Shown here piece after piece: positions 7,812 through 56,686 of a stretch of 64,000 nucleotides of DNA; the first letter of the stretch is position 1; every line of letters starts with the position of its first letter. The notes beneath the pieces were generated by a model, which was not told where the DNA came from, did not search any database, and saw only the letters and a program-made list of their open reading frames with translations. The position numbers were made by a program, and so were the translations under genes. Source of the stretch: Bacteroidota bacterium (GTDB taxonomy: Bacteria > Bacteroidota > Bacteroidia > Chitinophagales > UBA10324); the NCBI GenBank assembly GCA_014190575.1, contig BJGQ01000001.1, positions 123,664 to 187,663 on the forward strand, read 5' to 3'.

Positions 7812-7929
7812 TTTTAAAATTCTGAAGAAGCACAAAATTAACTCACAGAAAGTGTATTTCTGATTTTCGAATTGAACACTAAATTACTTGTTCATGCTAA
7901 GATTCGTTCAAAAAAGAAAGTAAAAAATA

Positions 7930-17381: not shown

Positions 17382-17930
17382 ATGCAGCCTCGCATTATTC
17401 TTACACCCGAAAAATTCTCTTTCACTATTGAAAGATTATGCAGGCAGTTAATTGAAGTTCACGGCGATTTCACAAACTCCATTCTTATCGGTGTTCAGCC
17501 TCGCGGTATAATTTTAGGCAAGCGCATTCAGTCTCGACTTTCAGAATTATTGAAAAAGGAAATCACATTCGGAACCATTGACCCGACCTTTTACAGAGAT
17601 GATTTTCGTTCATCAGAAAAACAACTCACCCCTGCACAAACCGAAATAGATTTTATGGTGGAAGGAAAAAAAGTAGTGCTCGTTGATGATGTGTTGTATT
17701 CCGGTAGAACTATTCGTGCTGCGATGGATGCATTGCTTGATTTTGGTAGAGCAGAAAAAGTTGAACTGTTGGTGTTGGTTGACCGAAGATTTACAAGGCA
17801 TTTACCGATACAACCTGATTATGTAGGGAAAAGTATTGATAGCATCAGCAGCGAGAAAGTAAAAGTGGAGTGGAAAGAAAAAGAAGGACACGACCAAATC
17901 TGGATCATACCTAAAACTGATAAAGAATGA
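17382..17930 (+). CDS. pyrR: PyrR (bifunctional pyr regulator / uracil phosphoribosyltransferase family)
   Basis: 182 aa. The PRPP-binding motif is 'VVLVDDVLYSGRTIRAAMDAL'. The overall layout is PyrR-like. The gene overlaps pyrB by 4 nt (ATGA). Confidence 0.9.
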   Translation: MQPRIILTPEKFSFTIERLCRQLIEVHGDFTNSILIGVQPRGIILGKRIQSRLSELLKKEITFGTIDPTFYRDDFRSSEKQLTPAQTEIDFMVEGKKVVLVDDVLYSGRTIRAAMDALLDFGRAEKVELLVLVDRRFTRHLPIQPDYVGKSIDSISSEKVKVEWKEKEGHDQIWIIPKTDKE

Positions 17931-18850
17931 GTGCACTCAGCGTTAAACATTTACTTGGAATAAAGTATTTAACCGTTGACGACATTGAACTCATTTTTAA
18001 AACCACTGATAGTTTCAAGGAAGTTATTAATCGTCCGATAAAAAAAGTTCCGACACTTCGCGACACAACTGTGGTGAATTTATTTTTTGAGAACAGTACA
18101 CGCACACGCATTTCATTTGAATTGGCGGAGCGAAGATTGAGTGCTGATATAGTAAATTTCAGTGCAAGTTCTTCATCAGTCAGCAAGGGAGAAACCCTGA
18201 TTGATACAGTTAATAATATTCTTGCCATGAAAGTGGATATGGTGGTGATGCGGCATCCTGCTCCAGGTGCTCCTGTTTTTTTATCGCGACACATTGATGC
18301 AAGTATTATTAACGCAGGCGATGGCACTCACGAACACCCAACACAGGCTTTACTCGATGCTTATTCCATCAGAGAAAAACTTGGAAGTATAAAAGGAAAA
18401 AAGATTTGCATCATTGGAGATATTCGACACAGCAGGGTAGCATTATCTAATATTTATTGTTTGAAAAAATTAGGTGCTGAAGTAATGCTGGTTGGCCCTC
18501 CTACTCTGATGCCAACATACATTGAATCACTTGGTGTTAAAGTGGAATACAATTTAAAGAAAGCATTGGAATGGTGCGATGTGGCCAATGTGTTGCGCAT
18601 TCAATTAGAAAGACAAGACATAAAATATTTTCCATCGCTGCGCGAGTATGCATTGTACTTCGGAATCAATAAACCTTTACTCGACTCATTGAAAAAAGAA
18701 ATTGTAATCATGCACCCGGGCCCTATTAACCGTGGTGTTGAAATAACCAGTGATGTTGCTGACAGTGCTCATTCAATTATTCTCGATCAAGTTGAGAATG
18801 GGGTTGCAATAAGAATGGCCACACTTTATTTATTGAGCGGAAGAAGATAA
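17927..18850 (+). CDS. pyrB: aspartate carbamoyltransferase catalytic subunit
   Basis: 307 aa. It carries 'FFENSTRTRISFELA' (the carbamoyl-phosphate-binding STRTR motif), 'HPTQALLD' and 'HPGPINRGVE'. Confidence 0.95.
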   Translation: MSALSVKHLLGIKYLTVDDIELIFKTTDSFKEVINRPIKKVPTLRDTTVVNLFFENSTRTRISFELAERRLSADIVNFSASSSSVSKGETLIDTVNNILAMKVDMVVMRHPAPGAPVFLSRHIDASIINAGDGTHEHPTQALLDAYSIREKLGSIKGKKICIIGDIRHSRVALSNIYCLKKLGAEVMLVGPPTLMPTYIESLGVKVEYNLKKALEWCDVANVLRIQLERQDIKYFPSLREYALYFGINKPLLDSLKKEIVIMHPGPINRGVEITSDVADSAHSIILDQVENGVAIRMATLYLLSGRR

Positions 18851-18916
18851 TAAAACTTGTAATTCATGAATGTTGGATAGTAAAAAAAATTATTAAACAA
18901 CTAATTTCCGGTTTAA

Positions 18917-19933
18917 TTAAAACCTCGGACAAAAAACTATTTTCTTATTAAAGTGAGGGATACATCCGATATATATTATAGAAAGCTCAGGTCCTCCTTT
19001 TGATTCGCTTGGTGAAGAAAAATCTGATATTGTTATATCATAATTGAAAGCGAAGCTAAATTGATCAACATCAAAACGAGTAACAATAACCCAAGCATCA
19101 TTCCATCTTAGCCATGGGCCAAGATATACACCATACTTACTGTTTTTCATCTTATCCAAATTTATTCTTACAAAACTCCCCATTACTAATTCATGATTTG
19201 GCCCTTGAAGTGAATATTGCAGTTTCGGATAAAATTCAAACCTTGAACTTGCATGTAAGTTAGCACCCATATTAAATACTAACTTTCTGAAAACTTTGGA
19301 GCTATCATCATCCAAAAAAGATTTTTTTGGTTTATTAATATGAAAGACAGCCAATCCCATTGTAAAACTATTTTGAAAAGTCGGGGGTATAAAATTATAA
19401 GCAACTCCTGCTGACAAATCAAAATAAGTCAAAGTACTTAATGCAACATTTTCTTGTGTAGCAACTTGTGATTGAAAAGGAATGTATTGATCACTGAATA
19501 AAAGATTGGTGTAATCAATATTTGCCGATGTCATTCCCAGCATAATTCCTCCTCCTAAATAATGATGACTGAATTTATCTAATGTCCGATGAACACTTCC
19601 GGCAAATCCAAATTGTGTAGTTGTAAATTTTGAATCGCCGGCCTTATCAACCGATGCATCTAAACCAAGGCCTATAATATTTTTATTTTTTCCTTTTATT
19701 CGTCGAATATCTCCTGATGCATGAAAAGTTGTAAATGGCTTAGTTACACTTCTCCATTGATTTCTATAATTAGCGATTAGTCGATAATCACAATTAAAAA
19801 ATCCTGCGTTCGCCGGGTTCTGCAACAAAGGAGTAGTATAAAATTGAGAGAAATGAATGTCCTGAGCTTTCACATTTAAGAAGGTGAAAAAAAAAATTAA
19901 ATTCAACACTAAAATTTTCACATTTCTTGTCAT
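18917..19933 (-). CDS. T9SS membrane protein, PorP/SprF family (adaptor candidate for the upstream giant)
   Basis: 338 aa. After the signal peptide comes 'AQDIHFSQFYTTPLLQNPANAGF...DYRLIANYRNQW', the family hallmark. It ends '...FCPRF'. Its start codon overlaps the stop of the 19930-25647 gene (ATGA). Confidence 0.9.
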   Translation of the reverse strand: MTRNVKILVLNLIFFFTFLNVKAQDIHFSQFYTTPLLQNPANAGFFNCDYRLIANYRNQWRSVTKPFTTFHASGDIRRIKGKNKNIIGLGLDASVDKAGDSKFTTTQFGFAGSVHRTLDKFSHHYLGGGIMLGMTSANIDYTNLLFSDQYIPFQSQVATQENVALSTLTYFDLSAGVAYNFIPPTFQNSFTMGLAVFHINKPKKSFLDDDSSKVFRKLVFNMGANLHASSRFEFYPKLQYSLQGPNHELVMGSFVRINLDKMKNSKYGVYLGPWLRWNDAWVIVTRFDVDQFSFAFNYDITISDFSSPSESKGGPELSIIYIGCIPHFNKKIVFCPRF

Positions 19934-22900
19934 CTTATTAAAGTAATATTTCCTTGTTTGCGTATCAATTCACCAGTACTGCATACTGCTTCTAAAAAAT
20001 AATCAAAAACTTCAGGCTCACTTTTCTTTCCATTAATTTTTCCATCCCAAGTTGCATTAAAATCAGTCGTTTCAAAAACCAATTGCCCCCATCGATTATA
20101 AATTTTTAAAAAGTGAAGTTCAGTAATACCAACTCCATTTAAATGAAATTCATCATTCTTTCCATCTCCGTTTGGAGTAAATGCATTGGGCACAAATAGC
20201 ACATTGTCATTACAATAAACATTTACCTTAGTTGTATCTTCATCTTTACATCCATTCAAATCAGTTAATGTAACAATATAAATAGTTGTTTGTAATGGAT
20301 TCGCAATTGGATTTTCACAAACATAACAGGTTAATGTTGAATCAGGCAACCATTGGAAATTTCCAGTTCCAGGAGTTAAGGAGTTGTAACCAGATAATTG
20401 TGCTGTTGTTCCAACTAAAATAGTTTGATCAGGACCGGCAACAACAACTGGCAAAGGATAAATGCAAACTTCAACATCACCTGTATCAGCATAACAACCC
20501 AACGAATCTGATACATAAATTGTGTAGGTTGTTGCAGTTAAAGGTGTTGCAGTTACACATGAATTTGTTGAGGAATCCAACCCAATTATTGGCTTCCATT
20601 TAAAAGTACTTTGGGTTGAAGAAATTGCACATAGTTCTGCTGTTTCACCAATGCAGAAACAAGTATCAGTTGGATAGGTTACAGTAAATGGAAATAAAAC
20701 AAATACTGTGATTGAATCAATACCCTCACAGCCATAAACATCAGTTCCTGTTACAGTATAAATAGTTGTATCAAATCCAGGCCCGCCACAAATCGGATTT
20801 GAAATTGATGTATTCAACAAACCATTTGAAGGCGACCAACTATAAAAAATTGCTCCTGTAACTGTTAACTGGGTATATGTATCTGAACAAATTTTCCTGT
20901 CTGGTCCGGCATTAACATTGGGTAATGGATGAACAGTAATGATTACTGAATCACTATTTGTACAACCATTCGCATCGGTTACAGTTAATGTATAGGTTGT
21001 TGTAATCGTTGGGCTTGCAATTGGATTAAAAATCGTACTGTCATTTAGTGAGTTTGATGGTTTCCATAAATAAATATTCGCATTTGAAGTTCCATTCAAT
21101 TGCGTAGAAAGCCCATAACAAAATTCATCAGAGTCTCCTGCATCAACAGTTGGAAATGGAAGAACGACAATGGTAGCTGAAGTATCATCACCACAAGTAC
21201 CAACAAAGGCGGTTACAGTAAATATTAAAGTTGTGTCATCTATATTTGGAGTAACGGTAATTGAAGAGGTTGTTTCACCAGTATTCCAATGATAAGTTAA
21301 TCCACCACTTGCAGTTAAAGTAATAGAACTACCCGGACAAATTGAATCCCCTGCTGTAATTGTTGCAGTTGGTGGTGGAGTAATTGTTATAGAAACGCTA
21401 TCCTTACCCGTGCATCCTGCAGCATCAGTTACTGTTAAATAATATGTGGAGTTTGCAATTGGAGACACAGTAATTGAAATAGTTGTTTCTCCTGTACTCC
21501 ATAAAAAACCAGTTCCACCTGTTCCATTTAAAATTGTTGATGAGTCGCTACAAATTATAACATTGGTTCCTGCATCAGCAATTGGTGGTGGTGATATAGT
21601 AACTGTAGTTGCAGCAGAATCATTGCAACCATTACAACCATATACAATAAAAGATATGGAATATGTACCTGGATTTAGGTATAAATGTGCAGGATTAAAT
21701 AAAGTTGAGGTTGTGCCATCACCAAAATCCCAAAGCACATTGCAAACTGTACTTGAACCACTTGTATCCGCAACAAAATTTGTTGAATCGCCAAAACATA
21801 ACGCATTAACTGGCGGAACAGGAATTGCTGTCGGGGCTTCTGTTACATGAATAGTATCGCGGGCAGTATCAGTGCATCCACCAACTGATGTAATAACCAA
21901 TGAAACAATAAAATCACCAAAAGTATTAAAGTAAACAGGTGGTGGATTTTGAAGATTGGAAGTTCCCTGACCACCAAAATCCCATTGCCAACTTACAATA
22001 TGATTGATTGGAACTCCTGAAAAATCATTTCCTCCGAATGACCATGAATTATCAGTGAAAGTAACAGTACCATTAGAACATAAATCATTTGTACTTGAGT
22101 TAAATTTTGCAAGAGGATGTACCAAAACTAAAGTATCAACTATTCTGGAATAAGTGCAATTAATACCATCACTTAAAACTACAGTAGGATAAAAAACTCC
22201 CGTATCAGGCATTGTGTAAGTATGACTTGCAGCAGAATAAATGAGCCCTGTTCCACCATACAATGGACTACCATCTCCAAATGACCAAAAAAAGCTAACG
22301 GAGTTCGTTGGGTTTAAATCAAAACTAATTAACTGCGGTAAACAGGTTGTATCTGGCGTTGCACTTGGATTTGCAAATGGGCCACCAATATTTATATAAT
22401 TTGGTTTTACAACAATGGTAGAACATCCAAGACAGGTATCGGTTGCGATAAGACCAACTGTAAATGATCCTGAATAAAGGTAAATATGAAATGGATTTTC
22501 AATTGATGAATGTGTACCATCACCAAAGCTCCAATAATATTTACCGCAACCATTAGGAATTAATGGTGATACAAAAAAAGTATCTTGTAATTCAGGACAA
22601 TTTGTACCAAGGCTTGTAGCATAAAAATCAACACTTACCTGCCCAACAATAATATAATTTATCTTAGTTAATGTACTGGAACATCCATTGCTATCAGTAC
22701 AAGTTAACGAAACTGTATAGGTTCCGGCGCTTTGGTAAGTATGGCATGGGAAAGCTAGAATGGATGAATCACCATCTCCAAAATCCCATACATAAGTTAA
22801 AAGAAGTCCGGTTGAATTATTAATAAAACATGCCTCAAATCCTAAACAAATAGTTGTATCAGGAACATAAAAATTAACAACTGGTACTTGAGCATTTACA

Positions 22901-25647
22901 TATGCAACAGTTGAATCAATACTAACACACCCATACTGATCAGTAACTTTTTCAGTAACTGTAAAGGTTCCGTTGGTTGTATAGTTATGAGTTACAACCG
23001 GATTGGTTGAAGGAGGAGTAAAACCCTGGCCATCTCCAAAATTAAAACTGTACAATGTTGGTGTAGAAACACAGTTCGCATTTGTGGTGTCGGTAAATGT
23101 TACTACAAAAGGGGCGCAGCCACTCAACACATCCCCGAAAAATCCAGGATTAACACCACGAACAACAACATCCCATTCCAAACTATCCACGCATCCATTT
23201 AAAGCAAAAACTTTTAATTTAACATGATACTTTCCGGGGCCAGGAAAATGTATAGAACTATCAGAAGGGAACCAAACAGGGGAAGTACTGAACAAGGCAG
23301 GCAGGTAAGCGCCCCCATTACATGAATCATAAATTTTCCACGCATAGTTTGAAGCACCAATTGTATGATTGACGACATGCGAAGTATTTGGAAAACAAAC
23401 AATGGTATCTATTGTTGCATCAGGTTGAAGATTTCGTAAAAAAACTATAACCGATACCGAATCACAACACCCTGAAGCAATATTGCAGATTTTTAACTTA
23501 GCCAGATACGATGCATTAGGATTCGGCATTGGATAAGTTACTGTAACCAAACCATTTGAAGAAGTACTTGGTGTTCCCCCTACAAAAGTCCATATATATA
23601 CATCAGCGCCAACAGAACTGGTACCATCATAATAAACCACATTAGGGCTATCGCAATTAACTGTAAATTCTAATTTAGGAATTGGAGGCAAAATGCACAC
23701 ATATTTTATTTTGGTAAGTGTATCGTTACATCCACAATTTTTTGAAATTAACATCACATCAAAACAACCGGTATCCTGATATAAATGTGATGGACACGGA
23801 TTAAAATCCTGACACCCCGGACCATCTCCAAAATTCCAACACCATGCCTGACAAGGTTTAAAACAAATTCCATTTGGGCACGCCGGATTACCACAAGTAT
23901 CAATTGTACAATTTGTAAACACAACAGGAACCGGGGCGCAAGTAGTTAATGGAGTTGCAGAAAAACATGGGTTCGTGTGTTCACCAACACAAATAGGAAT
24001 TCCGGGGAAATAATTTGTTACAGAATCTTTACAGCCTAAAGCATTTACAATTTTCAATTTTACATTATAACATCCCGCAGTTGGGAAATTTAAAGTAGGA
24101 GTTGGACCTAAGTTCTGGTTCGCAATGCAAGGAGGTGCTCCTACTTCCTGCACACACCACAAATATTGAGTAGGACTTCCGGTGCTGCAACCTGCATTAA
24201 AATTTAACGATAATGGTGCGCAGTATTTTCCGGCAGTTGGTAAATTTGTTATTGTATAACAAGCATGCGGGCAATCAATTTTCACAGTATCGTTTAAATA
24301 AACTGAAGAGTCGCAACCACCTGGACCTGTTACGGTAAGAGATATTCCATATTGCCCACAGGCATTGTAAGTTATATTTCCTGGATTTTGTAATGTAGAT
24401 GAACTTGGTGTACCACCAGGGAACTGCCAATTATATGTCCAAGGGCCGGCAGCTCCGCAATACTGAACATTTACTGTTTGAGGATAAGAACATGCAGGAG
24501 CATTACTAGTAAGATTTATACAGGCAACCGGTTTAGCATATACATGAATTGTTCTTGGAGGTGCAACTACCGCGCAGCCATTAACAATTGCACTAAGCGA
24601 AATTGAATAAGTTCCAGGGCAAGAAAAACAATAATCAACTGCTGCTGTATTTTGAGTTGTATTTGGTGTTACACATGTTGTTGGGCTAATATTCCATGTA
24701 TAAGATGTTGAAGGGCCTGTACCGGCATGAACGCATTCACCAACGCACAAATTCGTATCACTTAAAATTATTGAAGTGGAACTATTTCCAACATTAATCA
24801 TGTTGGGAACAAATTCAGTACTGGTACATCCGTTTTGGTCGGTTACAACGCAAGTTACATCCCATGAGCCAGGGCCATAAACTATTCCGTTCGGACATGG
24901 TAAAGCTGAAGTTCCAGGTGTTCCTCCCTGAAAAGTCCATGAATAGGTATAAGGAGGAGCACCGTTAACAACAGGTGGCGCACAAAAATCAACCGTTAAA
25001 TTATTGAGACAAGTTGTTGTAATACCTAATGCACTAATTGTAAACGAAGGAGGTGGTGTGATACAAACGGCATTGGCAATAGAAGTATCATCATTACAAC
25101 CATGATTGTTTGTAATTACCAAAGTAGCGCAAAAGCAACCTGAATCTTCGGGATAGGTATAGCTTGGATTCGCACTGTTTAATTGTTGTCCGTTGCACAT
25201 ATCCCATACATAACTTAACGAACTTGAACCGGCACCAACAGTTGAACAACTGCTGTTAAAAGAAAATTGTGTTCCTGCACAAGCTGCAGGTATGTTTACT
25301 ATAAAACAAGCATGAGGATCACAGTAAATTGGAACCGGTTTTGTTTTTGTTAAAATCGCCGAACCTCCTCCATTAATTACCAATGTTACTTGCAATGCAG
25401 GATTACAAACTGGAAAATTTACAATTATAGGCCCTTGTGATGTAGAAGTTGAAGGCACTGCTCCTGCTCCAAAATCCCAACTCCAACTTGTTGCGCCAAC
25501 AGAAGCATCAGAAAAAATAACAGTTACCCCTTCGCAATAAGGTGTATTAGCCGGAGTTGAAGCTTTGGTAAAATCAGCACTCTGTGCAAGTATGTTGCTG
25601 ACAGAAAAAAAAGAAATAAATATTGTGAGTTGTAAAAGTTTTCTCAT
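19930..25647 (-). CDS. giant (1905 aa) PKD-like/Ig-like repeat protein with T9SS type-B CTD
   Basis: It has a signal peptide and many PKD-like modules (recurring 'W(D/S/N)FGDG...' with paired Cys). These are followed by Ig-like 'ICxGxSxxLxAxGGxxYxW' modules. The terminal sequence is 'VLFVPNAFTPNGDGKNDEF...YNRWGQLVFET...WDGKINGK...GNITLIR'. Confidence 0.9.
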   Translation of the reverse strand: MRKLLQLTIFISFFSVSNILAQSADFTKASTPANTPYCEGVTVIFSDASVGATSWSWDFGAGAVPSTSTSQGPIIVNFPVCNPALQVTLVINGGGSAILTKTKPVPIYCDPHACFIVNIPAACAGTQFSFNSSCSTVGAGSSSLSYVWDMCNGQQLNSANPSYTYPEDSGCFCATLVITNNHGCNDDTSIANAVCITPPPSFTISALGITTTCLNNLTVDFCAPPVVNGAPPYTYSWTFQGGTPGTSALPCPNGIVYGPGSWDVTCVVTDQNGCTSTEFVPNMINVGNSSTSIILSDTNLCVGECVHAGTGPSTSYTWNISPTTCVTPNTTQNTAAVDYCFSCPGTYSISLSAIVNGCAVVAPPRTIHVYAKPVACINLTSNAPACSYPQTVNVQYCGAAGPWTYNWQFPGGTPSSSTLQNPGNITYNACGQYGISLTVTGPGGCDSSVYLNDTVKIDCPHACYTITNLPTAGKYCAPLSLNFNAGCSTGSPTQYLWCVQEVGAPPCIANQNLGPTPTLNFPTAGCYNVKLKIVNALGCKDSVTNYFPGIPICVGEHTNPCFSATPLTTCAPVPVVFTNCTIDTCGNPACPNGICFKPCQAWCWNFGDGPGCQDFNPCPSHLYQDTGCFDVMLISKNCGCNDTLTKIKYVCILPPIPKLEFTVNCDSPNVVYYDGTSSVGADVYIWTFVGGTPSTSSNGLVTVTYPMPNPNASYLAKLKICNIASGCCDSVSVIVFLRNLQPDATIDTIVCFPNTSHVVNHTIGASNYAWKIYDSCNGGAYLPALFSTSPVWFPSDSSIHFPGPGKYHVKLKVFALNGCVDSLEWDVVVRGVNPGFFGDVLSGCAPFVVTFTDTTNANCVSTPTLYSFNFGDGQGFTPPSTNPVVTHNYTTNGTFTVTEKVTDQYGCVSIDSTVAYVNAQVPVVNFYVPDTTICLGFEACFINNSTGLLLTYVWDFGDGDSSILAFPCHTYQSAGTYTVSLTCTDSNGCSSTLTKINYIIVGQVSVDFYATSLGTNCPELQDTFFVSPLIPNGCGKYYWSFGDGTHSSIENPFHIYLYSGSFTVGLIATDTCLGCSTIVVKPNYINIGGPFANPSATPDTTCLPQLISFDLNPTNSVSFFWSFGDGSPLYGGTGLIYSAASHTYTMPDTGVFYPTVVLSDGINCTYSRIVDTLVLVHPLAKFNSSTNDLCSNGTVTFTDNSWSFGGNDFSGVPINHIVSWQWDFGGQGTSNLQNPPPVYFNTFGDFIVSLVITSVGGCTDTARDTIHVTEAPTAIPVPPVNALCFGDSTNFVADTSGSSTVCNVLWDFGDGTTSTLFNPAHLYLNPGTYSISFIVYGCNGCNDSAATTVTISPPPIADAGTNVIICSDSSTILNGTGGTGFLWSTGETTISITVSPIANSTYYLTVTDAAGCTGKDSVSITITPPPTATITAGDSICPGSSITLTASGGLTYHWNTGETTSSITVTPNIDDTTLIFTVTAFVGTCGDDTSATIVVLPFPTVDAGDSDEFCYGLSTQLNGTSNANIYLWKPSNSLNDSTIFNPIASPTITTTYTLTVTDANGCTNSDSVIITVHPLPNVNAGPDRKICSDTYTQLTVTGAIFYSWSPSNGLLNTSISNPICGGPGFDTTIYTVTGTDVYGCEGIDSITVFVLFPFTVTYPTDTCFCIGETAELCAISSTQSTFKWKPIIGLDSSTNSCVTATPLTATTYTIYVSDSLGCYADTGDVEVCIYPLPVVVAGPDQTILVGTTAQLSGYNSLTPGTGNFQWLPDSTLTCYVCENPIANPLQTTIYIVTLTDLNGCKDEDTTKVNVYCNDNVLFVPNAFTPNGDGKNDEFHLNGVGITELHFLKIYNRWGQLVFETTDFNATWDGKINGKKSEPEVFDYFLEAVCSTGELIRKQGNITLIR

Positions 25648-25808
25648 CCGCTACTAATTGAATTCTAAAATTACTTCATTCAAATTCATAAAAAAAAATA
25701 CCTGCTACATTTTTTCACAAATCGTTTTTTTGTATTACGCAATCAATTATTGGCGCAAGTTAGTTTATAAACTTTACACAACGAACAAACAGAACTTTCA
25801 TTATCTGT

Positions 25809-25816
25809 TATTTTTG
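25809..25816 (+). promoter_or_regulatory. candidate -7 promoter element (TAnnTTTG) for the C40 peptidase gene
   Basis: 'TATTTTTG' lies 19 nt upstream of the proposed GTG start at 25835. Motif match only. Confidence 0.25.
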
Positions 25817-25834
25817 TTCAAACTTTTATACATC

Positions 25835-26608
25835 GTGTCGTTTGGAATTTGCCCGCTTGCAGTGGTACCTGTCAGAATTGAACCTTCTGATAAATCTGAA
25901 ATGGTTACGCAACTGTTATTCGGAGAAGGATTTGAAATTTTAGATGCACAACCCAAGTGGACAAAAGTGCAATTGCATTGGGATGGTTACATGGGATGGA
26001 TTGATTCCAACACAATACACACTGCTTCTTTTTCCGATATTGACGAAGAAGAGAAAAACTTTTTTTATTGCAATGACATATCAGCAATTGTCAATTCTTC
26101 ATTTGGAAAACAGGTTATTACTTTGGGTTCTTCACTACCACAACTTAAAAAAAACAAACTGAAATTAGGTGCCGAAGAATTTTCGTTTGAAGGAACTGCA
26201 TTGAACTCATCAGCCATTGAACACACTGAAATTTCAATTGAAGAACTGGCAAAAAAATATTTGAATGCTCCATACTTGTGGGGTGGAAGAAGCATATGGG
26301 GAATCGATTGCAGCGGATTCACACAACTGGTTTATAAAATGCTTGGAGAAAAACTTCGTCGTGATGCTTACCAACAAGCCGATCAGGGAATGCTGGTAAA
26401 TTTTGTTGACGAAGCTCATACCGGTGATTTAGCATTTTTTAATAATGAAGATGGAAAAATAATTCATGTTGGAATGGTGCTGAGTAAAAACAGAATCATA
26501 CATGCGAGCGGGCGTGTTCGCATTGATGTTTTGGATCATTATGGAATTTACAACCAGCAAAAAAAATCTTACTCGCACCAACTTCGTTTTATAAAAAGAA
26601 TTTTGTGA
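25835..26608 (+). CDS. C40 (NlpC/P60) family peptidase with N-terminal SH3-like domain
   Basis: 'GIDCSGFTQLVYK' carries the catalytic Cys, and 'IIHVGMV...IIHAS' the His. The N-terminal 'ICPLAVVPVRIEPSDKSEMVTQLLFGE' is typical of the start of these proteins. I prefer the in-frame GTG at 25835 (MSFGICPLAV...). The track start at 25658 is a TTG that adds 59 low-complexity residues and abuts the divergent gene. Confidence 0.8.
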   Translation: MSFGICPLAVVPVRIEPSDKSEMVTQLLFGEGFEILDAQPKWTKVQLHWDGYMGWIDSNTIHTASFSDIDEEEKNFFYCNDISAIVNSSFGKQVITLGSSLPQLKKNKLKLGAEEFSFEGTALNSSAIEHTEISIEELAKKYLNAPYLWGGRSIWGIDCSGFTQLVYKMLGEKLRRDAYQQADQGMLVNFVDEAHTGDLAFFNNEDGKIIHVGMVLSKNRIIHASGRVRIDVLDHYGIYNQQKKSYSHQLRFIKRIL

Positions 26609-34435: not shown

Positions 34436-34554
34436 TGTTTTGATGTTTGAAACAGTTATTTTTTTATTGAGCACAAAGATAATCAGAAAGAACAAAAAAC
34501 AAGGTTTTCAAAAAATAATCAGCACACAAATTTGTTCATTGTCTAAATATTTTA

Positions 34555-48337: not shown

Positions 48338-48374
48338 GATTGACGCGTTGCCAAATATACTTGCGACCACCCAA

Positions 48375-50037: not shown

Positions 50038-51036
50038 CTAAAACCTCGGACAGAAAATTTTCTTCTTGTGCATACCTGGAATATTATTAGTGTACATAAC
50101 TGAAATTTCGGGCCCGCCGCGAGCATGACTCACCAAAGCCAAGCGACTGAAATTAATATCATACGAAATACCCATAGTAAATTTATTCAGGTCAATTTTT
50201 GTAACGAAAATAAATGCATCGTTCCAACGCATCATTGCGCCTATATAAACTCCATAATCGTTCAGGTAATTGTAATTCAAACTATATCGTTGTAGATACC
50301 CAATCACCAATTCGTTAAATGGTCCTTGTTTCTCAAATAACAATTTCGGATATGCGGTAAATTTATTTCCCATTCCAAGATTGGCTCCCACATTCACAAC
50401 CAATTTTCTGAATACTCTTGAGGACGGGTCATCATTAAAGGTTTGATTTGGCTTAAAAACATGATACATCGCCATGCCCGCTGTAAAATTATTTGACTTG
50501 TCAATGAGTTTATTGTATTCTGCTCCTAACGATAGATCGTAATAATCTGAAATACCAATTGGAAAAACTTCAGTGAATGTGCCGCCTTCATATTGCTCAT
50601 CCCATCTTAAATTATCGTAACTAATATTACTTAAACAATAAGCACCCATTAATCCAAAGCCTAAAAAGTCTTTGTTGTATTTACCAATGGCAACATTATA
50701 AGCTTCACTTAATCCAATGTATGAAGTATTAAATCTTGAATCTCCGGCTTTATCATTTATAAACATAAAACCGGTTCCAAAAACATCTTTCTTCTTTTTT
50801 CCTGCTACAAATGAAAGCTCAGCACTTCCAATTGCAGTTGTATAAGGCACAGTTATACTTGACCATTGGTTTCTATAATTACCGGCTAATCTATAATCAC
50901 CGGTAATGAAACCAGTTTTAGCCGGATTTACCTGTAATGGTGTTGCGTAAAATTGTGAGAAATGAATATCCTGAGCCGACGAAAAATTTATCAGAACAGA
51001 AAATAAAATCGTTGATATAAATTTAAATAGTTTCAT
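50038..51036 (-). CDS. T9SS membrane protein, PorP/SprF family (adaptor candidate for giant B)
   Basis: 332 aa. It carries 'AQDIHFSQFYATPLQVNPAKTGF...DYRLAGNYRNQW' and ends '...IFCPRF'. It lies 76 nt downstream of the 51113-56686 gene. Confidence 0.9.
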   Translation of the reverse strand: MKLFKFISTILFSVLINFSSAQDIHFSQFYATPLQVNPAKTGFITGDYRLAGNYRNQWSSITVPYTTAIGSAELSFVAGKKKKDVFGTGFMFINDKAGDSRFNTSYIGLSEAYNVAIGKYNKDFLGFGLMGAYCLSNISYDNLRWDEQYEGGTFTEVFPIGISDYYDLSLGAEYNKLIDKSNNFTAGMAMYHVFKPNQTFNDDPSSRVFRKLVVNVGANLGMGNKFTAYPKLLFEKQGPFNELVIGYLQRYSLNYNYLNDYGVYIGAMMRWNDAFIFVTKIDLNKFTMGISYDINFSRLALVSHARGGPEISVMYTNNIPGMHKKKIFCPRF

Positions 51037-51112
51037 TTTAAAATTTTCTGCAATAAAAAAAATTTAACATTCATCAAATTCAATTCCAGGTAACACACAT
51101 TAATAATCAATC

Positions 51113-54100
51113 TCATCTTACTAAAGTTACATTACCCTGCCGTTCAATAATAAATCCATCGCCACAAATCGCTTTCAAGTAAAAGACATACACAGCCGGG
51201 GGCAATTGCTTTCCTCCAAAGGTTCCATCCCAGCCAATGTTTTGATCAGCAGTTTCAAATACCAGTTCACCCCAACGATCATAAACTCTTAAAAAATTTA
51301 ATTCACGAATTCCTGATGAACGAACTTTGAACACATCGTTCTTTCCGTTTGCATTCGGAGAAAAAACATTCGGAATGTATAACACATCATCATTGCACAT
51401 TACTGTAATAATCATAGAGTCTTCAGCCTTGCATCCAAATTCATTAATTGCTGAAAGTGTATAAGTAGAATTTTGCAATGGAGTTGCAACCGGATCTTCA
51501 CAACCTGTACAACTCAAACCTTCAGGCGGACTCCAACTAAAAGTTCCCGATGCATCAGCATTAATATTGTAACTGTCACCTGAAACCAAGGTTACATCAG
51601 GGCCTGCGTAAGCAGAAGGTATCGGAACAATTGTTATAATCACCTGAAGTGTATCACTTGCCATGCACACATTATCAGTAATGATTACAGAATAAATAGT
51701 TGTGCTAAAAGTCGAAGCTAAAGTTGTTGATTCAGTTGGATTGCTTAATCCTGCTGATGGAGACCATGAATATGATGTTCCACCACTTGCGTATATCTCA
51801 ATCGTTTGCAATTGACAAACAGTAGTATCACCCCAAGCTAAAAATACAGGAGGCGGTAAAACTTTTATCTTAACTGAATCCTGCGCTGAACAATTGTTTG
51901 CATCTGTTACAGTAACCGTGTAAGTCATATCAACCAATGGAGTGCAAATTGGATTTGAAACCAAACTGTTATTTAAATAAGATGGTGGATTCCAATTGTA
52001 AGTAACACCTCCACTTGCATTTAGCTGTCCCGAAAAAGTTAAACAGATGGTATCATTCACTCCTGCATTTGCAAGTGGCAATGGATTTACTAATACAATA
52101 ACATTTGCAGTTCCGATACAGTTATTGCTATCAATGGTTGTTACTGTGTAAGTTGATGTTGATGTTGGATTTGCAATTGGATTTGGAATAACAGTATTAC
52201 TCAACCCAGCTGATGGCGACCACGAATAATTTAATCCACCAGATGCATTTAACTGTGTAGTATCACCAAAACAAATCGTAGTATTTGAACCACCACTAAC
52301 TGTTGGATTCGGCAGAACAATTATTCCAACAAATGCTGTTCCTGTACAACTATTTGCATCGGTTCCAGTAACTGTAAAAGTTGTATTGCTAAAAATTGTA
52401 GCTGTTGGATTTTGAATCAAATTATTATTTAAAACTGCAGATGGTTGCCATACATATTGATTTCCACCTCCTGCACTTAATTGTAATGCGACTCCTGAAC
52501 AAGTTGTATCTGATGAAAGCGATGATGCAGTAATTACAGGAGCATTATAAATTGAAACAGAAACACTGTCTTCATTAATGCAACCATTCGCATCAGTAAT
52601 TGTTACTGTGTATGTAATATTTAATAAAGGAGTTGAAATAGGATTGGAAATATTTGCATTGTTTAAATAGGTTGCCGGCAACCAGGAATAAGTAATTCCA
52701 TTAGCTGAAGAAAGTTGCGCACTCGCATTAGGGCAAATAGGGGTATTGGTCGACACATTCGGATTTGGCAGTGAAAGCACAATCACATCTATAGTTGATG
52801 TATCAGCGCATGAACCAATACCAGATGCAATGAGAGTAACGGTAAATAATCCAACGGCAGAAAAATTATGTGAAGGATTTGATAGTACAGAAGAGTTATT
52901 TCCTCCGCTCGCTAAATCACCAAAATTCCAATTCCAGTTAGTAATTGGTTGATTGGAATTGTAATTAAAATTGACAGGAGTATTAATGCATGGAGTTAAA
53001 TCATCAGCAGTAATTCCAATTGTAGGAGGAGGATAAACAAAAACTGTATCAGATAAAACTCCTGTACATCCATTTTGTGTGTTCACAAAAAGCGTAACAA
53101 TGTAAACTCCAATTGTATCATAATAATGTAATGGGTTTTGTAAAATACTTGTATCCAGAATTCCACTTGTTGAGTCACCAAAAGTCCAGAACCATGAAGT
53201 AATAGGAGAAATACCAAAAGTAGAATCAGTAAAGGTCACAGTTCCAGAATTACACAAGTATGGAATATCAGGATTCCAAAAAACATTTGGGCTCCCTGCA
53301 ACTATTGAATCAATCGGAAATGAATAAATACAACCTGCTCCATTATCCAATAAAAGTGAAGGATAAAATGTTCCGGGGCTTAGATACACATAACATATGC
53401 TATCGTTGGCGAATGGAACAACATTCCCATCGCCAAAATCCCATGTATATGAGGTAGTGGTATTTGAATTTGCCACAAAGCAAACATTCAAAGGATTGCA
53501 ACCACTGGTTGGAGTAACAGAAACTGTTGCAGTTGGGCCAGTTATAGAAATCAATGAATCTATTACTAGCGTATCATCACAACCGTACTGATTGTGAATT
53601 ATTAAAGTCACAGTATAAAAACCAGGTAAGCTATAGATATGAAATGGATTTTGCACATTGCTATTTGATCCGTCACCAAAAATCCAATCATAAGTTGTGT
53701 TGGCATCTACGCCTGTTGATGTGCTTGTGAAATTTACGGGCAGTGGAGGGCAACTTGAATAAGTACTGTCAGCAGTAAAATTTGCCTGAGGATCAGTTAC
53801 ATGAATGTATAGTGTGCGAATCATCGTATCGGCACAGCCTGCCGTATCATTTCCAATTAATGTAACTGTAAAATCACCAACACTTAAATAAGTATGACAT
53901 GGATTCAATTGTGTTGAAGTTGCGTTATCACCAAAATTCCATTGATAAGAAAGACTTCCGCCAAAAGATGAATTAAAAAAACAAGTTGATTCTCCTAAGC
54001 AAACAGTAGAATCAATGGCCACAAAAGAAACATTCGGTTGATACGGATTAACATATTGTGGAATCGTAAGCGTATCATAACATCCATGATTCTCCAATGC

Positions 54101-56686
54101 AACCAGAGTTACATCATAACTTCCAACATCATTATAAATATGATTTGGATTTTGTAAAGATGAGGTATTTAAAACTCCGCTGGCGGTATCACCAAAATTC
54201 CACCAAAAAGATACAACTGTTGAAACAATACTTGAAGCCGCTGCATCAAAATCAACTGATAAAGGTGTACAACCACTCAATGGAATACCTGTAATATTTA
54301 AATTCAATCCATATGCATAAATATAGTAAGGTTTGTACATAGTATCTGTACAACCATTCGCATCAATTGCAATTAGTTCAACACTGAATTTTCCTGCTGC
54401 ATTAAAATTCCGACATGGATTCATAATATTACTATTCAAAATCAAAGTACCATAAGCATTGTAAATTGACCATTGATAAGTTGTGGCATTAACTGAAAGG
54501 TTTGTAAAGCATACCTGATCAGGTATACAAACAACAGTGTCATCAGCTATAAAATCAGCAGACACATTATTGATAATAATATTCTGATCCAGCGTATCAT
54601 AGCATCCGGTTTGAAAATTCTGAACCACTAACTCAACAGGATAAGTACCATTTGATGGATAGGCAACTGTTATTACAGAATCAGAAAGAGAAGAAGGAAT
54701 ACCACCCGGAACACTCCAGAAAAAAGTATCAGCGGCAATTGAACTACCTCCATGAAGGGAAATATTATACGGGTCTGCGCACGAGCTAACAACAAAGAAA
54801 TTAGCAATGGGTGGAAGTATATGAACCATTGAATCAATTGTCAATGTATCACAACATCCATTGTTGCAAATCACAAGTGTTACATCAAACCACCCTGTAT
54901 CAGGATACAAATATTGTGGGTCTGATGAGGTGCTCATAATATCAAAAGGTGGCACTCCGATAAAATCCCATTGATAAGATGTAGTTGAATCAGTGCCAGT
55001 AGAAGAATTGGTGAAAGCAACAGGTTGATAAGCGCAAGTGACAGATGGGCTTGCTGTAAAATTCGGAGTTGGATGATTCCCAACACAAACCTCATTAACA
55101 TGAAAAACAGTGTCTGCACAACCCAATGCATTACTAACTATTAAACGAACATTATAACAACCGACATTATTATAAATGTGTGATGGGTTTTGAAGATTCG
55201 AAGTATTTAGCGGTCCGCTTGATGGATCACCAAAACTCCAAAGCCATGATGTTGGAGCACCTGAATTTCCTGTATAAATAAAATTGGTATTAAGTGGGGT
55301 ACATCCATAAGGAGGCATAGAATTAAAACTTGCAGTTGGACAATCAATAATAGCTGCGCTGTCAAAAACAAATGTATCAACACAACCAGCAGGATTGGTA
55401 ACAGTTAAAGAAGCCGAATAAATTCCACAACTATTATATGTAACATTCGGTGGATTTGGGTTACTCCATGATGCAGGAACTCCCCCTGAAAATTGCCAGT
55501 TGTAACTCAACCCCGGACCACCGGTTGAGGTATTGTTGAAGTCAATTATTTGAGGTGGTTGACAGGTATAAACATTTCCTGTTAAAGTAAAATTAGCATG
55601 AGGGTAATTTGCAACCACAATGGTTGTACACTTATTTGCAATGCACCCACCGGGGTAAGTTATTTGTAAGCACACCTGATAACTTCCTGCACTGTTAAAA
55701 GTAAATTGCGCATTCTGTGTATTCGATGTTGCTGGAACTGCATTAGGTGTTGTTGTCCAACCCCACGATAATGGAGGTGACGAAGATATTCCTTGAACAT
55801 CTAAAACAAATGGTACACAACCGCTTGTTGAGTTAACTGTAAAGTCAGCGATATTACTTGCAATAGCTGCAAAATTTGTTTGCACTATTGTATCAGCACA
55901 ACCAGTTGCGTTTGTTACAATTAAAGTTACATCATATATCCCGGGGGAATTATAGGTTGCCGATGGATTCAAGATATTCGATGTTGCTGGTATGCCACCA
56001 GGGAAAATCCACTGATAATTTAAAACTCCTATGCCTGTAGATGTGTTTGTGTAATCAATGGTAAATGGCGCACTACAGGAAACACTTGTACTTGCTGTGA
56101 ATGAAGCATTAGGTTGGTCAGCAATACAAATCAAGTTCGACATCGTTGTGTCATCATTGCACCCATTTGCATCTGTTACTATTAAAGTAACACTCTTGCA
56201 ACCAGAAATTGTATAAGGGTGATTTGTATTAGCAAAATTCCCTGTGTTACCATCACCAAAGTCCCAGAAATAAGTATTGATTGGAGCTGAACCTAAAGTA
56301 GTGGTACTGTTAAATTGTGTTGTTAAGGGAATGCATCCTGTTAATGGATTAGCAGTAAAAGAGGCAACAGGGTTACAAAAAATATTAATTATTTGAGTAG
56401 ATGTATCAATGACAATTCCATTAGTAGCAATTAATGTAACAACAAAATTCCCACATGTTAAATACGAAAACGAAGGACTTTGGAAAGTTGAATTCACTCC
56501 CGGGTTCACACCGAAATTCCATTCATATGTTAAACCAATACCAACAGATTGGTTTGTAAATGAAACTGTAGTAGGAGCGCAATTTGGGTTTTGATAGTTA
56601 AAAGTAAAAGCAGCAGTAACCTGAGCATCTGCCTTAGAAAAGATAATATTTAAAAAAAGAAATAGTAAAATGCGTGTAACCTTCAT
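51113..56686 (-). CDS. giant (1857 aa) PKD-like/Ig-like repeat protein with T9SS type-B CTD
   Basis: The architecture matches the 19930-25647 protein: signal peptide, many 'W(D/N)FGDG'-type PKD-like modules, Ig-like 'CxGxxxQLxAxGGxxYxWxPxxxL' modules, then 'VLYIPNVFSPNANGKNDVF...YDRWGELVFET...GWDGTFGGK...GNVTLVR'. Confidence 0.9.
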   Translation of the reverse strand: MKVTRILLFLFLNIIFSKADAQVTAAFTFNYQNPNCAPTTVSFTNQSVGIGLTYEWNFGVNPGVNSTFQSPSFSYLTCGNFVVTLIATNGIVIDTSTQIINIFCNPVASFTANPLTGCIPLTTQFNSTTTLGSAPINTYFWDFGDGNTGNFANTNHPYTISGCKSVTLIVTDANGCNDDTTMSNLICIADQPNASFTASTSVSCSAPFTIDYTNTSTGIGVLNYQWIFPGGIPATSNILNPSATYNSPGIYDVTLIVTNATGCADTIVQTNFAAIASNIADFTVNSTSGCVPFVLDVQGISSSPPLSWGWTTTPNAVPATSNTQNAQFTFNSAGSYQVCLQITYPGGCIANKCTTIVVANYPHANFTLTGNVYTCQPPQIIDFNNTSTGGPGLSYNWQFSGGVPASWSNPNPPNVTYNSCGIYSASLTVTNPAGCVDTFVFDSAAIIDCPTASFNSMPPYGCTPLNTNFIYTGNSGAPTSWLWSFGDPSSGPLNTSNLQNPSHIYNNVGCYNVRLIVSNALGCADTVFHVNEVCVGNHPTPNFTASPSVTCAYQPVAFTNSSTGTDSTTSYQWDFIGVPPFDIMSTSSDPQYLYPDTGWFDVTLVICNNGCCDTLTIDSMVHILPPIANFFVVSSCADPYNISLHGGSSIAADTFFWSVPGGIPSSLSDSVITVAYPSNGTYPVELVVQNFQTGCYDTLDQNIIINNVSADFIADDTVVCIPDQVCFTNLSVNATTYQWSIYNAYGTLILNSNIMNPCRNFNAAGKFSVELIAIDANGCTDTMYKPYYIYAYGLNLNITGIPLSGCTPLSVDFDAAASSIVSTVVSFWWNFGDTASGVLNTSSLQNPNHIYNDVGSYDVTLVALENHGCYDTLTIPQYVNPYQPNVSFVAIDSTVCLGESTCFFNSSFGGSLSYQWNFGDNATSTQLNPCHTYLSVGDFTVTLIGNDTAGCADTMIRTLYIHVTDPQANFTADSTYSSCPPLPVNFTSTSTGVDANTTYDWIFGDGSNSNVQNPFHIYSLPGFYTVTLIIHNQYGCDDTLVIDSLISITGPTATVSVTPTSGCNPLNVCFVANSNTTTSYTWDFGDGNVVPFANDSICYVYLSPGTFYPSLLLDNGAGCIYSFPIDSIVAGSPNVFWNPDIPYLCNSGTVTFTDSTFGISPITSWFWTFGDSTSGILDTSILQNPLHYYDTIGVYIVTLFVNTQNGCTGVLSDTVFVYPPPTIGITADDLTPCINTPVNFNYNSNQPITNWNWNFGDLASGGNNSSVLSNPSHNFSAVGLFTVTLIASGIGSCADTSTIDVIVLSLPNPNVSTNTPICPNASAQLSSANGITYSWLPATYLNNANISNPISTPLLNITYTVTITDANGCINEDSVSVSIYNAPVITASSLSSDTTCSGVALQLSAGGGNQYVWQPSAVLNNNLIQNPTATIFSNTTFTVTGTDANSCTGTAFVGIIVLPNPTVSGGSNTTICFGDTTQLNASGGLNYSWSPSAGLSNTVIPNPIANPTSTSTYTVTTIDSNNCIGTANVIVLVNPLPLANAGVNDTICLTFSGQLNASGGVTYNWNPPSYLNNSLVSNPICTPLVDMTYTVTVTDANNCSAQDSVKIKVLPPPVFLAWGDTTVCQLQTIEIYASGGTSYSWSPSAGLSNPTESTTLASTFSTTIYSVIITDNVCMASDTLQVIITIVPIPSAYAGPDVTLVSGDSYNINADASGTFSWSPPEGLSCTGCEDPVATPLQNSTYTLSAINEFGCKAEDSMIITVMCNDDVLYIPNVFSPNANGKNDVFKVRSSGIRELNFLRVYDRWGELVFETADQNIGWDGTFGGKQLPPAVYVFYLKAICGDGFIIERQGNVTLVR

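Follow-up and report, generated by a model that had tools for sequence, protein, structure and literature searches.

A type-B CTD cargo gene and a PorP/SprF-family carrier gene as a probable two-gene operon conserved in Chitinophagales

The two genes described here very probably form an operon that encodes a T9SS type-B cargo, a giant protein, together with its own carrier of the PorP/SprF family. Both are located on the minus strand of the window, i.e., the whole stretch of 64,000 nucleotides that was analyzed, and the coordinates of their features are collected in Table 1. Two-gene units of this kind are ordinary in the Bacteroidota and well understood. The pair is regarded as a dedicated one because it was duplicated as a unit, has been kept in 8/8 orthologous loci, and shows the same adjacency in distant relatives.

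Table 1. Features of the cargo/carrier pair and of its upstream region.
Feature	Coordinates	Strand	Details and basis
Carrier gene, PorP/SprF-family outer-membrane protein (predicted)	18917..19933	(-)	ORF, ATG start, 338 aa
C-terminal tail of carrier, CIPHFNKKIVFCPRF, aa 324-338, predicted periplasmic	18920..18964	(-)	Beyond last modelled strand
ATGA stop/start overlap of cargo and carrier	19930..19933	(-)	4 bases common to both ORFs
Cargo gene, putative surface-filament protein	19930..25647	(-)	ORF, ATG start, 1905 aa
Type-B C-terminal sorting domain of cargo, aa 1819-1905, ends ...KQGNITLIR	19933..20193	(-)	TIGR04131 and PF13585
Six shorter Ig-like domains of cargo, CHU_C-associated (Ig_7-like), aa 1360-1806	20230..21570	(-)	Self-derived HMM
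Fifteen PKD-type Ig-like domains of cargo, aa 36-1346	21610..25542	(-)	Pfam and self-derived HMM
Sec signal peptide of cargo, MRKLLQLTIFISFFSVSNILAQ/S, aa 1-22	25582..25647	(-)	Inspection of translation
Candidate -7 box, TAATTTTA	25666..25673	(-)	7/8 match to TAnnTTTG
Conserved non-coding block, TTTATAAACTAACTTGCGCCAATAATTGATTGCGTAATACA	25731..25771	(-)	Alignment of 8 orthologous upstream regions

A sequence-only reading of this DNA had proposed that the stop codon of a giant gene with a type-B C-terminal sorting domain (CTD) overlaps the start codon of a PorP/SprF-family gene. Both open reading frames and the ATGA overlap were confirmed: the cargo gene ends with ...TTA ATA AGA TGA and the carrier gene starts one base out of frame with ATG ACA AGA, the cargo TGA occupying 19932-19930 and the carrier ATG 19933-19931. 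The proposed families were borne out by curated profiles as well. The cargo CTD was matched by TIGR04131 with 52.2 bits (cut-off 35) over model positions 3-85 of 85, and by PF13585 (CHU_C) with 60.1 bits (cut-off 27). For the carrier, TIGR03519 gave 151.3 bits (cut-off 90.55; residues 6-321, model positions 3-290 of 292) and PF11751 gave 119.6 bits (cut-off 22.3). The passenger is PKD-rich, as had been claimed (PKD_4, E = 4.7e-102; PKD, E = 1.5e-63), and the claim that it is not of the SprB-repeat type agrees with a Pfam search in which PF13573 had no match on the giant at E <= 0.01.

From its N-terminus, the cargo consists of a signal peptide, 21 diverged Ig/PKD-like domains (a total obtained with an HMM that was built from the cargo itself and iterated on the same protein) and the type-B CTD. 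The PKD-type array has a period of ~85 aa, and no tandem repeat was found in this region at the DNA level. Within the region of the six shorter domains, Pfam Ig_7 gave a weak match (residues 1425-1497, E = 0.0022), which is under the gathering score. The protein contains 97 cysteines (5.1%). Its orthologs are colinear, with identities of 50-66% in the protein alignment, and keep the N-terminal sequence MRK.LQLT. Conservation within the cargo is highest in the CTD (74-95% identity among orthologs versus 49-64% for the PKD part), which is in keeping with a conserved contact between CTD and carrier.

The carrier starts with a signal peptide, read by inspection (aa 1-23, ...NVKA/QD), and the N-terminus of the mature protein, QDIHFSQFY, is conserved. 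An AlphaFold2 model based on a 110-sequence alignment has 14 strands, with a barrel at aa 50-323 (pLDDT 87.1, pTM 0.81). When this model was compared with the PDB using Foldseek, the best match was chain F of the T9SS translocon entries 8gl6 and 6h3i, which we take to be PorV, followed by FadL. The TM-score to chain F was 0.51-0.58, at a sequence identity of just 11-12%. The carrier is thus predicted from its model to be an outer-membrane, 14-strand FadL-like barrel.

The surroundings of the pair were then compared among loci. The gene upstream of the cargo gene encodes an SH3-NlpC/P60 protein and is divergently transcribed, so that sprC and sprD are absent, as the sequence-only reading had pointed out. 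Downstream of the carrier gene lies a convergent pyrB in the window; in the seven orthologous loci, the downstream neighbours are a glycosyltransferase, small CHU_C proteins, sdh genes, another giant, or a pseudouridine synthase. No PorE-like gene (OmpA_C with TPR/WD40) adjoins the carrier gene in any of the 8 loci. Likewise, no T9SS core or gld genes, including gldK/porK, L, M and N, were found within the window, so that the T9SS machinery is implied only through its CTD proteins, namely four type-B proteins (this cargo included) and five type-A proteins.

All seven orthologous loci, which were found in Chitinophagales MAGs, retain the pair, with carriers 62-83% identical, and a CHU_C giant of ~1900 aa is encoded immediately upstream of the carrier in 8/8 loci when the window locus is counted. 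The relatives are planktonic freshwater MAGs. The window also contains a full-length paralogous cargo and PorP pair at 50038-56686; over their full length, the two barrels are 43% and the two giants 35% identical, and on these sequence comparisons cargo and carrier were duplicated as one unit. Additionally, three barrel relatives at 36-41% identity are encoded directly downstream of CHU_C/PKD giants, and three orthologs of the paralogous carrier likewise directly follow such giants, so the position of the carrier holds for 8/8 orthologs and for all six other relatives examined. The dedicated cargo-adaptor pair that the sequence-only reading had proposed is therefore supported by the joint duplication, by the 8/8 loci and by the three distant relatives. 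The carrier could instead be the general PorP of the T9SS (P. gingivalis porPKLMN type), standing beside the giant incidentally. General and dedicated members are not told apart by the family models, and no PorP gene adjoins two other type-B giants of the window (5004-7835 and 57632-63814), from which it follows that some sharing of carriers must occur. However, no homologs of gldK, L, M or N flank the carrier gene. The 64 kb contain two PorP paralogs, and each of them immediately follows a giant of its own; moreover, cargo and carrier were duplicated jointly, and their adjacency holds in 8 orthologs, three distant relatives and three paralog orthologs. We consider a general PorP very improbable.

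Overlaps of four bases are not rare in the window: they were found at 3 of the 23 same-strand junctions, the pyrR/pyrB junction (17927-17930) being another example. The ATGA at the cargo/carrier junction is present in all seven orthologous loci too, and the residues that directly follow the carrier ATG are unconserved among the orthologs; by these counts, it is the conservation of the overlap, not its presence, that exceeds chance. The overlap demands an Arg codon ending in A and a TGA stop, in an AT-rich genome. In the paralogous cassette and its orthologs, the genes are separated by gaps of 76, 39, 4 and 0 nt, with TAA or TAG also serving as stops, and in the distant cassettes the gaps amount to 11-137 nt. 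The lack of an overlap in the paralogous cassette indicates that such pairs do not require it. Moreover, no conserved Bacteroidota-type -7 box was found within 400 nt upstream of the carrier ATG in any ortholog set. The two genes are presumably co-transcribed, and their translation is probably coupled. As an alternative, the ATGA may reflect tight packing without any coupling role, in which case translation of the carrier would be initiated independently or the carrier gene would be served by an internal promoter. The frequency of 4-base overlaps in the window and the gaps with which paralogous and distant cassettes function speak for this explanation, but the ATGA has been kept in 8/8 orthologs while the following codons diverged, it needs a particular codon and a TGA where paralogs often have TAA or TAG, and the carrier ATG is not preceded by a conserved -7 box. 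An overlap without a coupling role is therefore considered unlikely.

The conserved block TTTATAAACTAACTTGCGCCAATAATTGATTGCGTAATACA is located in the intergenic region that separates the cargo gene from the divergent NlpC/P60 gene. Its core, TGAyTGCGTAATA, is invariant in the 8 aligned upstream regions while the flanks drift, and it occurs once in the window without mismatch. No Rfam family matched the block, which, judging from the alignment, is a candidate for a shared regulatory site. The consensus of the Bacteroidota -7 promoter box is TAnnTTTG, and the sequence TAATTTTA, located ~20 nt upstream of the cargo ATG, resembles it; at this position, the pattern T.A.TTTTA is invariant in 8/8 aligned loci. 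TAATTTTA is likely to be the promoter of the two-gene unit, although this assignment is tentative, because no -33 TTTG was found at the proper spacing from it.

Taken together, these features suggest the following route. The cargo would enter the periplasm by means of its Sec signal peptide. At the T9SS translocon, the 14-strand barrel encoded by the neighbouring gene would recognize the type-B CTD (the last ~90 residues), extract the cargo from the translocon and remain bound to it. In this way, the chain of Ig/PKD-like domains could stay attached to the cell surface in the form of a long filament rich in disulfides, which is most likely an adhesin. Binding of the cargo by the carrier, dependence of secretion on it and anchoring by it are all proposed by analogy with what has been published for F. 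johnsoniae and P. gingivalis. Bacteroidota make little use of Shine-Dalgarno sites, and ribosomes that finish the 1905-codon cargo gene may restart on the carrier gene through the ATGA overlap, an arrangement that would suit a 1:1 cargo-carrier complex.

The tail of the carrier bears on whether such a filament moves. It comprises Cys324, the sequence IPHFNKKIVF, Cys335 and the terminal PRF, and Cys335 (codon 18929-18931) is part of a motif Cys-Pro-x-aromatic. This cysteine is kept in 113 of 120 homologs (94%), down to 34% identity. Cys324 co-occurs with Cys48: both are present in 31 sequences, Cys324 alone in two and Cys48 alone in none. In F. johnsoniae, the SprF tail Cys324-Pro-Cys326 bonds to GldK, the partner residue being Cys343, and the tail cysteines of SprF are dispensable for SprB export (PMC12635249). 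The SprF tail reads ...SNCPCTQSPV, as decoded from primer priXL332. The vicinal Cys-x-Cys of the SprF type is absent from the carrier tail, a single Cys-Pro being common to both; in the register set by the proline, the conserved cysteine of the carrier corresponds to the first, helper cysteine of SprF, and the bond to GldK uses the second. One relative (P0084, ending ...YSPRF) has no tail cysteine and yet adjoins a type-B giant, so the cysteine is not needed for pairing.

In F. johnsoniae, static type-B substrates are encoded in operons with a PorE-like gene, and mobile ones in operons without it (PMC12618676). The conserved tail cysteine (CPRF-COOH) and the absence of a PorE-like gene would place the present pair, by analogy, in the mobile class, in which a disulfide may tie the carrier to GldK and the filament travels on the gliding track; this placement is tentative, at slightly less than even odds. 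The other reading, which we regard as quite possible, retains the cognate pair but makes it static: the carrier anchors the filament at a fixed surface site for cell-cell or particle adhesion, and the tail cysteine has another role, e.g., in folding or in docking transiently to the GldK/PorK structure in the course of export. Some type-B substrates of F. johnsoniae are indeed static (Fjoh_3952), the tail motif differs from the SprF Cys-x-Cys, and gliding may matter little to planktonic freshwater relatives; moreover, SprB export is independent of the SprF tail cysteines, so that a tail cysteine alone is no proof of movement. Against a static filament, the 8 loci have no PorE-like gene in the operon, whereas the static F. 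johnsoniae example has one, and a cysteine with 94% conservation in relatives down to 34% identity calls for a function. Beyond the mobile placement of this pair, the Cys-Pro-x-aromatic end might be a general disulfide hook by which not SprF alone but most PorP/SprF-like carriers attach to the invariant GldK/PorK cysteine, a generalization that we consider rather doubtful. If it held, the presence or absence of a single residue in the sequence would tell type-B adhesins that ride the gliding track from static ones. The PKD filament would then be an adhesin driven along the track in a lineage of freshwater Chitinophagales, and the clade-specific, co-varying Cys48 and Cys324 would act as a staple within the molecule, at the seam of the barrel.

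The arrangement of a cargo gene followed by a carrier gene is already the rule in the literature (PMC12618676, PMC9143113). Cognate shuttles are encoded directly downstream of type-B cargo and are required for its secretion (Paillat et al. 2025, PMC12618676), and SprB binds SprF just as PG1035 binds PorP (Gorasia et al. 2022, PMC9143113); the dependence of SprB on SprF and of type-B CTD proteins on cognate PorP/SprF-like proteins, which the sequence-only reading had cited, is thus more firmly grounded than it was stated there. The closest likeness is to the Fjoh_4750-type pairs of F. johnsoniae (PMC12618676), in which, again, a putative adhesin that is large and repetitive and has a TIGR04131 CTD is combined with a PorP/SprF-family gene immediately downstream, with no PorE-like gene. 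Unlike these, the window pair comes from a Chitinophagales MAG lineage, its passenger is made of 21 PKD/Ig-like domains and its stop/start overlap is conserved, the comparison of both passenger and overlap being by description and not by sequence. In sprCDBF of F. johnsoniae, a type-B CTD cargo is likewise followed by a PorP/SprF-family carrier, and the periplasmic C-tails of SprF and of the window carrier both have a Cys followed by a Pro. However, the window locus lacks sprC, sprD and SprB repeats, its cargo of 1905 aa is far shorter than SprB, and the carrier tail is Cys-x10-Cys-Pro-Arg-Phe versus Cys-Pro-Cys in SprF. In P. gingivalis PG1035-PorP-PorE and in Fjoh_3952/3951/3950, a PorP-like barrel holds a type-B CTD protein at the surface (PMC9143113), as is proposed here, but these systems include or use a PorE-like peptidoglycan-binding partner, and none is encoded beside the window pair. 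Finally, PorV has the 14-strand FadL-like barrel fold that is predicted for the carrier; PorV, however, is a recycled shuttle for all type-A cargo, in contrast to PorP/SprF-like carriers, each of which is specific to its cargo and remains attached to it (PMC12618676).

The coordinates, sizes and overlap claimed for both genes of cassette 1 in the sequence-only reading proved exact in the ORF calls and the junction sequence. On the minus strand, the gene of the giant, the type-B CTD cargo, ends with TTA ATA AGA TGA and that of its PorP/SprF-family carrier begins with ATG ACA AGA, and the four bases ATGA at 19933-19930 are common to both. The features analyzed are presented in the table below.

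Features of cassette 1, of its paralog and of other T9SS-related genes in the window
Feature	Position	Strand	Remarks
Giant gene	19930..25647	-	ORF of 1905 codons
Carrier gene	18917..19933	-	ORF of 338 codons, directly 3' of giant
PKD-type domains (15)	giant residues 36-1346		self-derived profile
Shorter domains (6)	giant residues 1360-1806		self-derived profile; weak Pfam Ig_7 match in same region
TAATTTTA	25666-25673	-	window's version of T.A.TTTTA, close to Bacteroidota -7 box TAnnTTTG
Conserved 41-nt non-coding block TTTATAAACTAACTTGCGCCAATAATTGATTGCGTAATACA, around TGATTGCGTAATAC	25731-25771	-	between divergent NlpC/P60 gene and giant
SH3-NlpC/P60 gene, then yjeF, then second NlpC/P60 gene	upstream of giant	opposite	
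pyrB and pyrR	downstream of carrier	convergent	
Giant 2 (cassette 2)	51113..56686	-	1857 aa, PKD/CHU_C
PorP 2 (cassette 2)	50038..51036	-	332 aa, PorP/SprF; 76-nt gap to giant 2
Mini-ORF MRLIINVCYLELNLMNVKFFLLQKILK	51116-51033	-	27 codons; bridges giant 2 and PorP 2
Type-B CTD protein	5004-7835	-	943 aa; no adjacent PorP/SprF gene in window
Type-B CTD protein	57632-63814	-	2060 aa, Ig_7-rich; no adjacent PorP/SprF gene in window
Type-A CTD (Por_Secre_tail) cargo proteins (five)	12-1595, 8758-11334, 15631-17310, 46751-48409, 48375-49967		
PorG-like segment, then OmpA_C/Pal-like peptidoglycan-binding domain	32810-34495	-	561 aa

Profile searches bore out the proposed type-B sorting domain and the PKD-rich, non-SprB passenger of the giant. 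TIGR04131 matched residues 1819-1905 (52.2 bits, cut-off 35, model positions 3-85 of 85) and PF13585 (CHU_C) the extreme C-terminus (60.1 bits, cut-off 27); PKD_4 (E = 4.7e-102, eight separate stretches) and PKD (E = 1.5e-63) also matched, and the SprB-repeat model did not. When the domains were counted using a profile made from the giant's own repeats and iterated on the same protein, 21 consecutive domains of ~85 residues were resolved. A Sec signal peptide can be read at the N-terminus (MRKLLQLTIFISFFSVSNILAQS), and 97 residues (5.1%) are cysteines. The domains have diverged from one another, no DNA tandem repeats were detected in the giant, and the GC content is even across the cassette-1 region, with no anomaly; there is no sign of a recent expansion of repeats or of a foreign origin. 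In Chitinophagales, a filament of PKD/Ig beads instead of SprB repeats recurs as passenger.

The assignment of the carrier to the PorP/SprF family was likewise confirmed by TIGR03519 (151.3 bits, cut-off 90.55), which, as does PF11751 (119.6 bits), covers its whole length. A signal peptide is followed by QDIHFSQFY, the conserved start of the family. The AlphaFold2 model, built with 110 homologs, has 14 strands (mean pLDDT 87.1, pTM 0.81). Compared with solved structures, it matches best chain F of the T9SS translocon entries 8gl6 and 6h3i, and next FadL; judging from its length, we take chain F to be PorV. The carrier sequence matched no PDB chain at E <= 1, and only the fold comparison was informative.

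Scanning one genome per species, we found seven orthologous loci in Chitinophagaceae/Chitinophagales MAGs, each with a PorP protein 62-83% identical to the carrier. All seven have the giant as the immediate upstream neighbor and ATGA at the junction, although the carriers start with different residues from locus to locus. The orthologous giants are colinear, and the stop/start overlap has been held across their divergence to 50-66% protein identity; their best conserved part is the CTD (74-95% identity, versus 49-64% for the PKD part). Six of them have ~1900 aa, and the seventh is split into two overlapping ORFs (L003, 2328-8004) by a frameshift or an assembly error. Downstream of the carrier, a second type-B giant of 2339 aa is encoded on the same strand in L007 (9116-16135), and a small convergent CHU_C protein (395-570 aa) just past it in L004, L005 and L008 (about 9050-10760).

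The window also holds the paralogous cassette 2, whose PorP protein is 43% identical to the carrier (and 100% identical to NCBI entry LBMAG27_01320, Bacteroidota bacterium) and whose giant is 35% identical over the full length. Cargo and carrier were therefore duplicated as a pair. CHU_C/PKD giants also directly precede the genes of carrier relatives that are more distant (36-41% identity), the gaps being 137, 51 and 11 nt, and the gaps in the cassette-2 orthologs are 39, 4 and 0 nt. The proposal of a dedicated cargo-adaptor pair is therefore upheld by adjacency in orthologs, paralogs and distant relatives and by duplication of the cassette as a unit; that the carrier is a general PorP was considered and rejected. 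Overlaps of four bases are common in themselves (3 of the 23 same-strand junctions of the window). Across the loci compared, adjacency is general, whereas the ATGA overlap is fixed in the cassette-1 ortholog group only. Such a fixed overlap, in a pair that is inherited and duplicated as one unit, speaks for a need to match the amounts of cargo and carrier.

In cassette 2, the ATG of the mini-ORF overlaps the giant 2 stop and its TGA overlaps the PorP 2 ATG, both as ATGA. The arrangement resembles a translational relay, but the mini-ORF is absent from the three orthologous loci and is probably a chance ORF.

No sprC, sprD or PorE-like gene lies beside cassette 1; as anticipated for sprC and sprD, the upstream neighbor of the giant is the opposite-strand SH3-NlpC/P60 gene. 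With this divergent gene upstream and convergent pyrB and pyrR downstream, the unit consists of two genes. The upstream NlpC/P60 gene is kept in all orthologous loci, and the downstream neighbor is variable. Alignment of the eight upstream regions (window and orthologs) revealed an invariant T.A.TTTTA ~20 nt before the ATG of the giant; no conserved -7 box was found in the 400 nt before that of the carrier. These conserved signals would fit a single promoter for both genes, without proving it. Farther upstream, the 41-nt block is nearly invariant in the eight loci, whose proteins are 50-83% identical, and fully so around TGATTGCGTAATAC; it has TTGCG(C/T)..AATA as an imperfect direct repeat and is a candidate operator common to both divergent promoters. 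An Rfam scan of 18700-26000 gave nothing except a chance miRNA match (E = 0.82), and a sigma-70 promoter scan, ill-suited to Bacteroidota promoters, found fewer sites than in shuffled sequences and was uninformative. No intrinsic terminator was found after the carrier and the folding of the 3' spacer is unexceptional (z = 0.21), so that neither search defined a transcript end.

The window is very rich in T9SS cargo, yet none of its 64 kb encodes a T9SS core or gld gene. The type-A cargo comprises a C-terminal fragment of an M36-like peptidase, a heparinase-like lyase, an S8 subtilase and two tandem M43 metallopeptidases. The two orphan type-B substrates would have to use a carrier encoded elsewhere, a situation described for three orphans of F. 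johnsoniae. The fusion of a PorG-like segment to an OmpA domain is unusual, the T9SS PorG barrel model NF052316 matching residues 246-320 below threshold (58.7 bits, cut-off 130). PorG is the other protein for which disulfide bonding to GldK has been reported.

The first such protein is SprF, whose periplasmic C-tail has Cys324-x-Cys326 (Liu et al. 2025, PMC12635249). According to the same authors, Cys326 forms a disulfide with GldK Cys343, by which the complex of SprF and SprB is attached to the moving track, and this bond is dispensable for export. The SprF tail, decoded from their mutagenic primers, is ...SNCPCTQSPV, and the carrier ends with ...YIG-C324-IPHFNKKIVF-C335-PRF. Of 120 homologs, down to 34% identity, 113 have Cys335, which lies three residues from the end and is always followed by Pro. 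Both Cys48 and Cys324 occur in 31 sequences, Cys324 alone in two and Cys48 alone in none; in the model they flank the first and last strands, and they are read as a putative intramolecular pair. A small subclade (P0074, P0083, P0084) has lost the tail Cys and keeps the Pro-Arg-Phe end (...YNPRF or ...YSPRF); in the more distant locus L010 (9001-9963), a PKD/CHU_C giant of 1436 aa precedes such a carrier by 137 nt. These proteins are candidate non-track-attached carriers.

Type-B substrates have been shown to be mobile on the gliding track in some cases and static in others, the operon of the static example including a PorE-like gene and those of the mobile ones lacking it (Paillat et al., PMC12618676). 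In none of the eight loci is the carrier followed by a PorE-like gene. Taken together with the tail Cys and the Cys48/Cys324 pattern, this makes the carrier lean towards the mobile, track-attached class, if the organism glides at all. Two further caveats are that a Cys-less relative is still paired with a giant and that the tail motif differs from that of SprF: aligned on the Pro, the conserved Cys falls on the helper Cys of SprF and not on its GldK-reactive Cys.

Paillat et al. (PMC12618676) also showed that two substrates require a shuttle encoded immediately downstream, and binding of SprB to SprF and of PG1035 to PorP was found by Gorasia et al. 2022 (PMC9143113). Three defining features of the sprCDBF operon were sought in cassette 1 and all were absent, and therefore it is not an sprCDBF operon. 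The reading proposed from the sequence is supported and is that of the textbooks. Both genes are already named by standard annotation models, and for type-B T9SS substrates cargo followed by carrier has been described as the rule; as a gene pair, cassette 1 adds little to this knowledge, and it offers a clean natural example of a cargo-carrier pair inherited and duplicated as a unit. The tail cysteine is the only lead worth pursuing, as a cheap sequence marker across the family that could bear on the mobile/static split recently described in F. johnsoniae.
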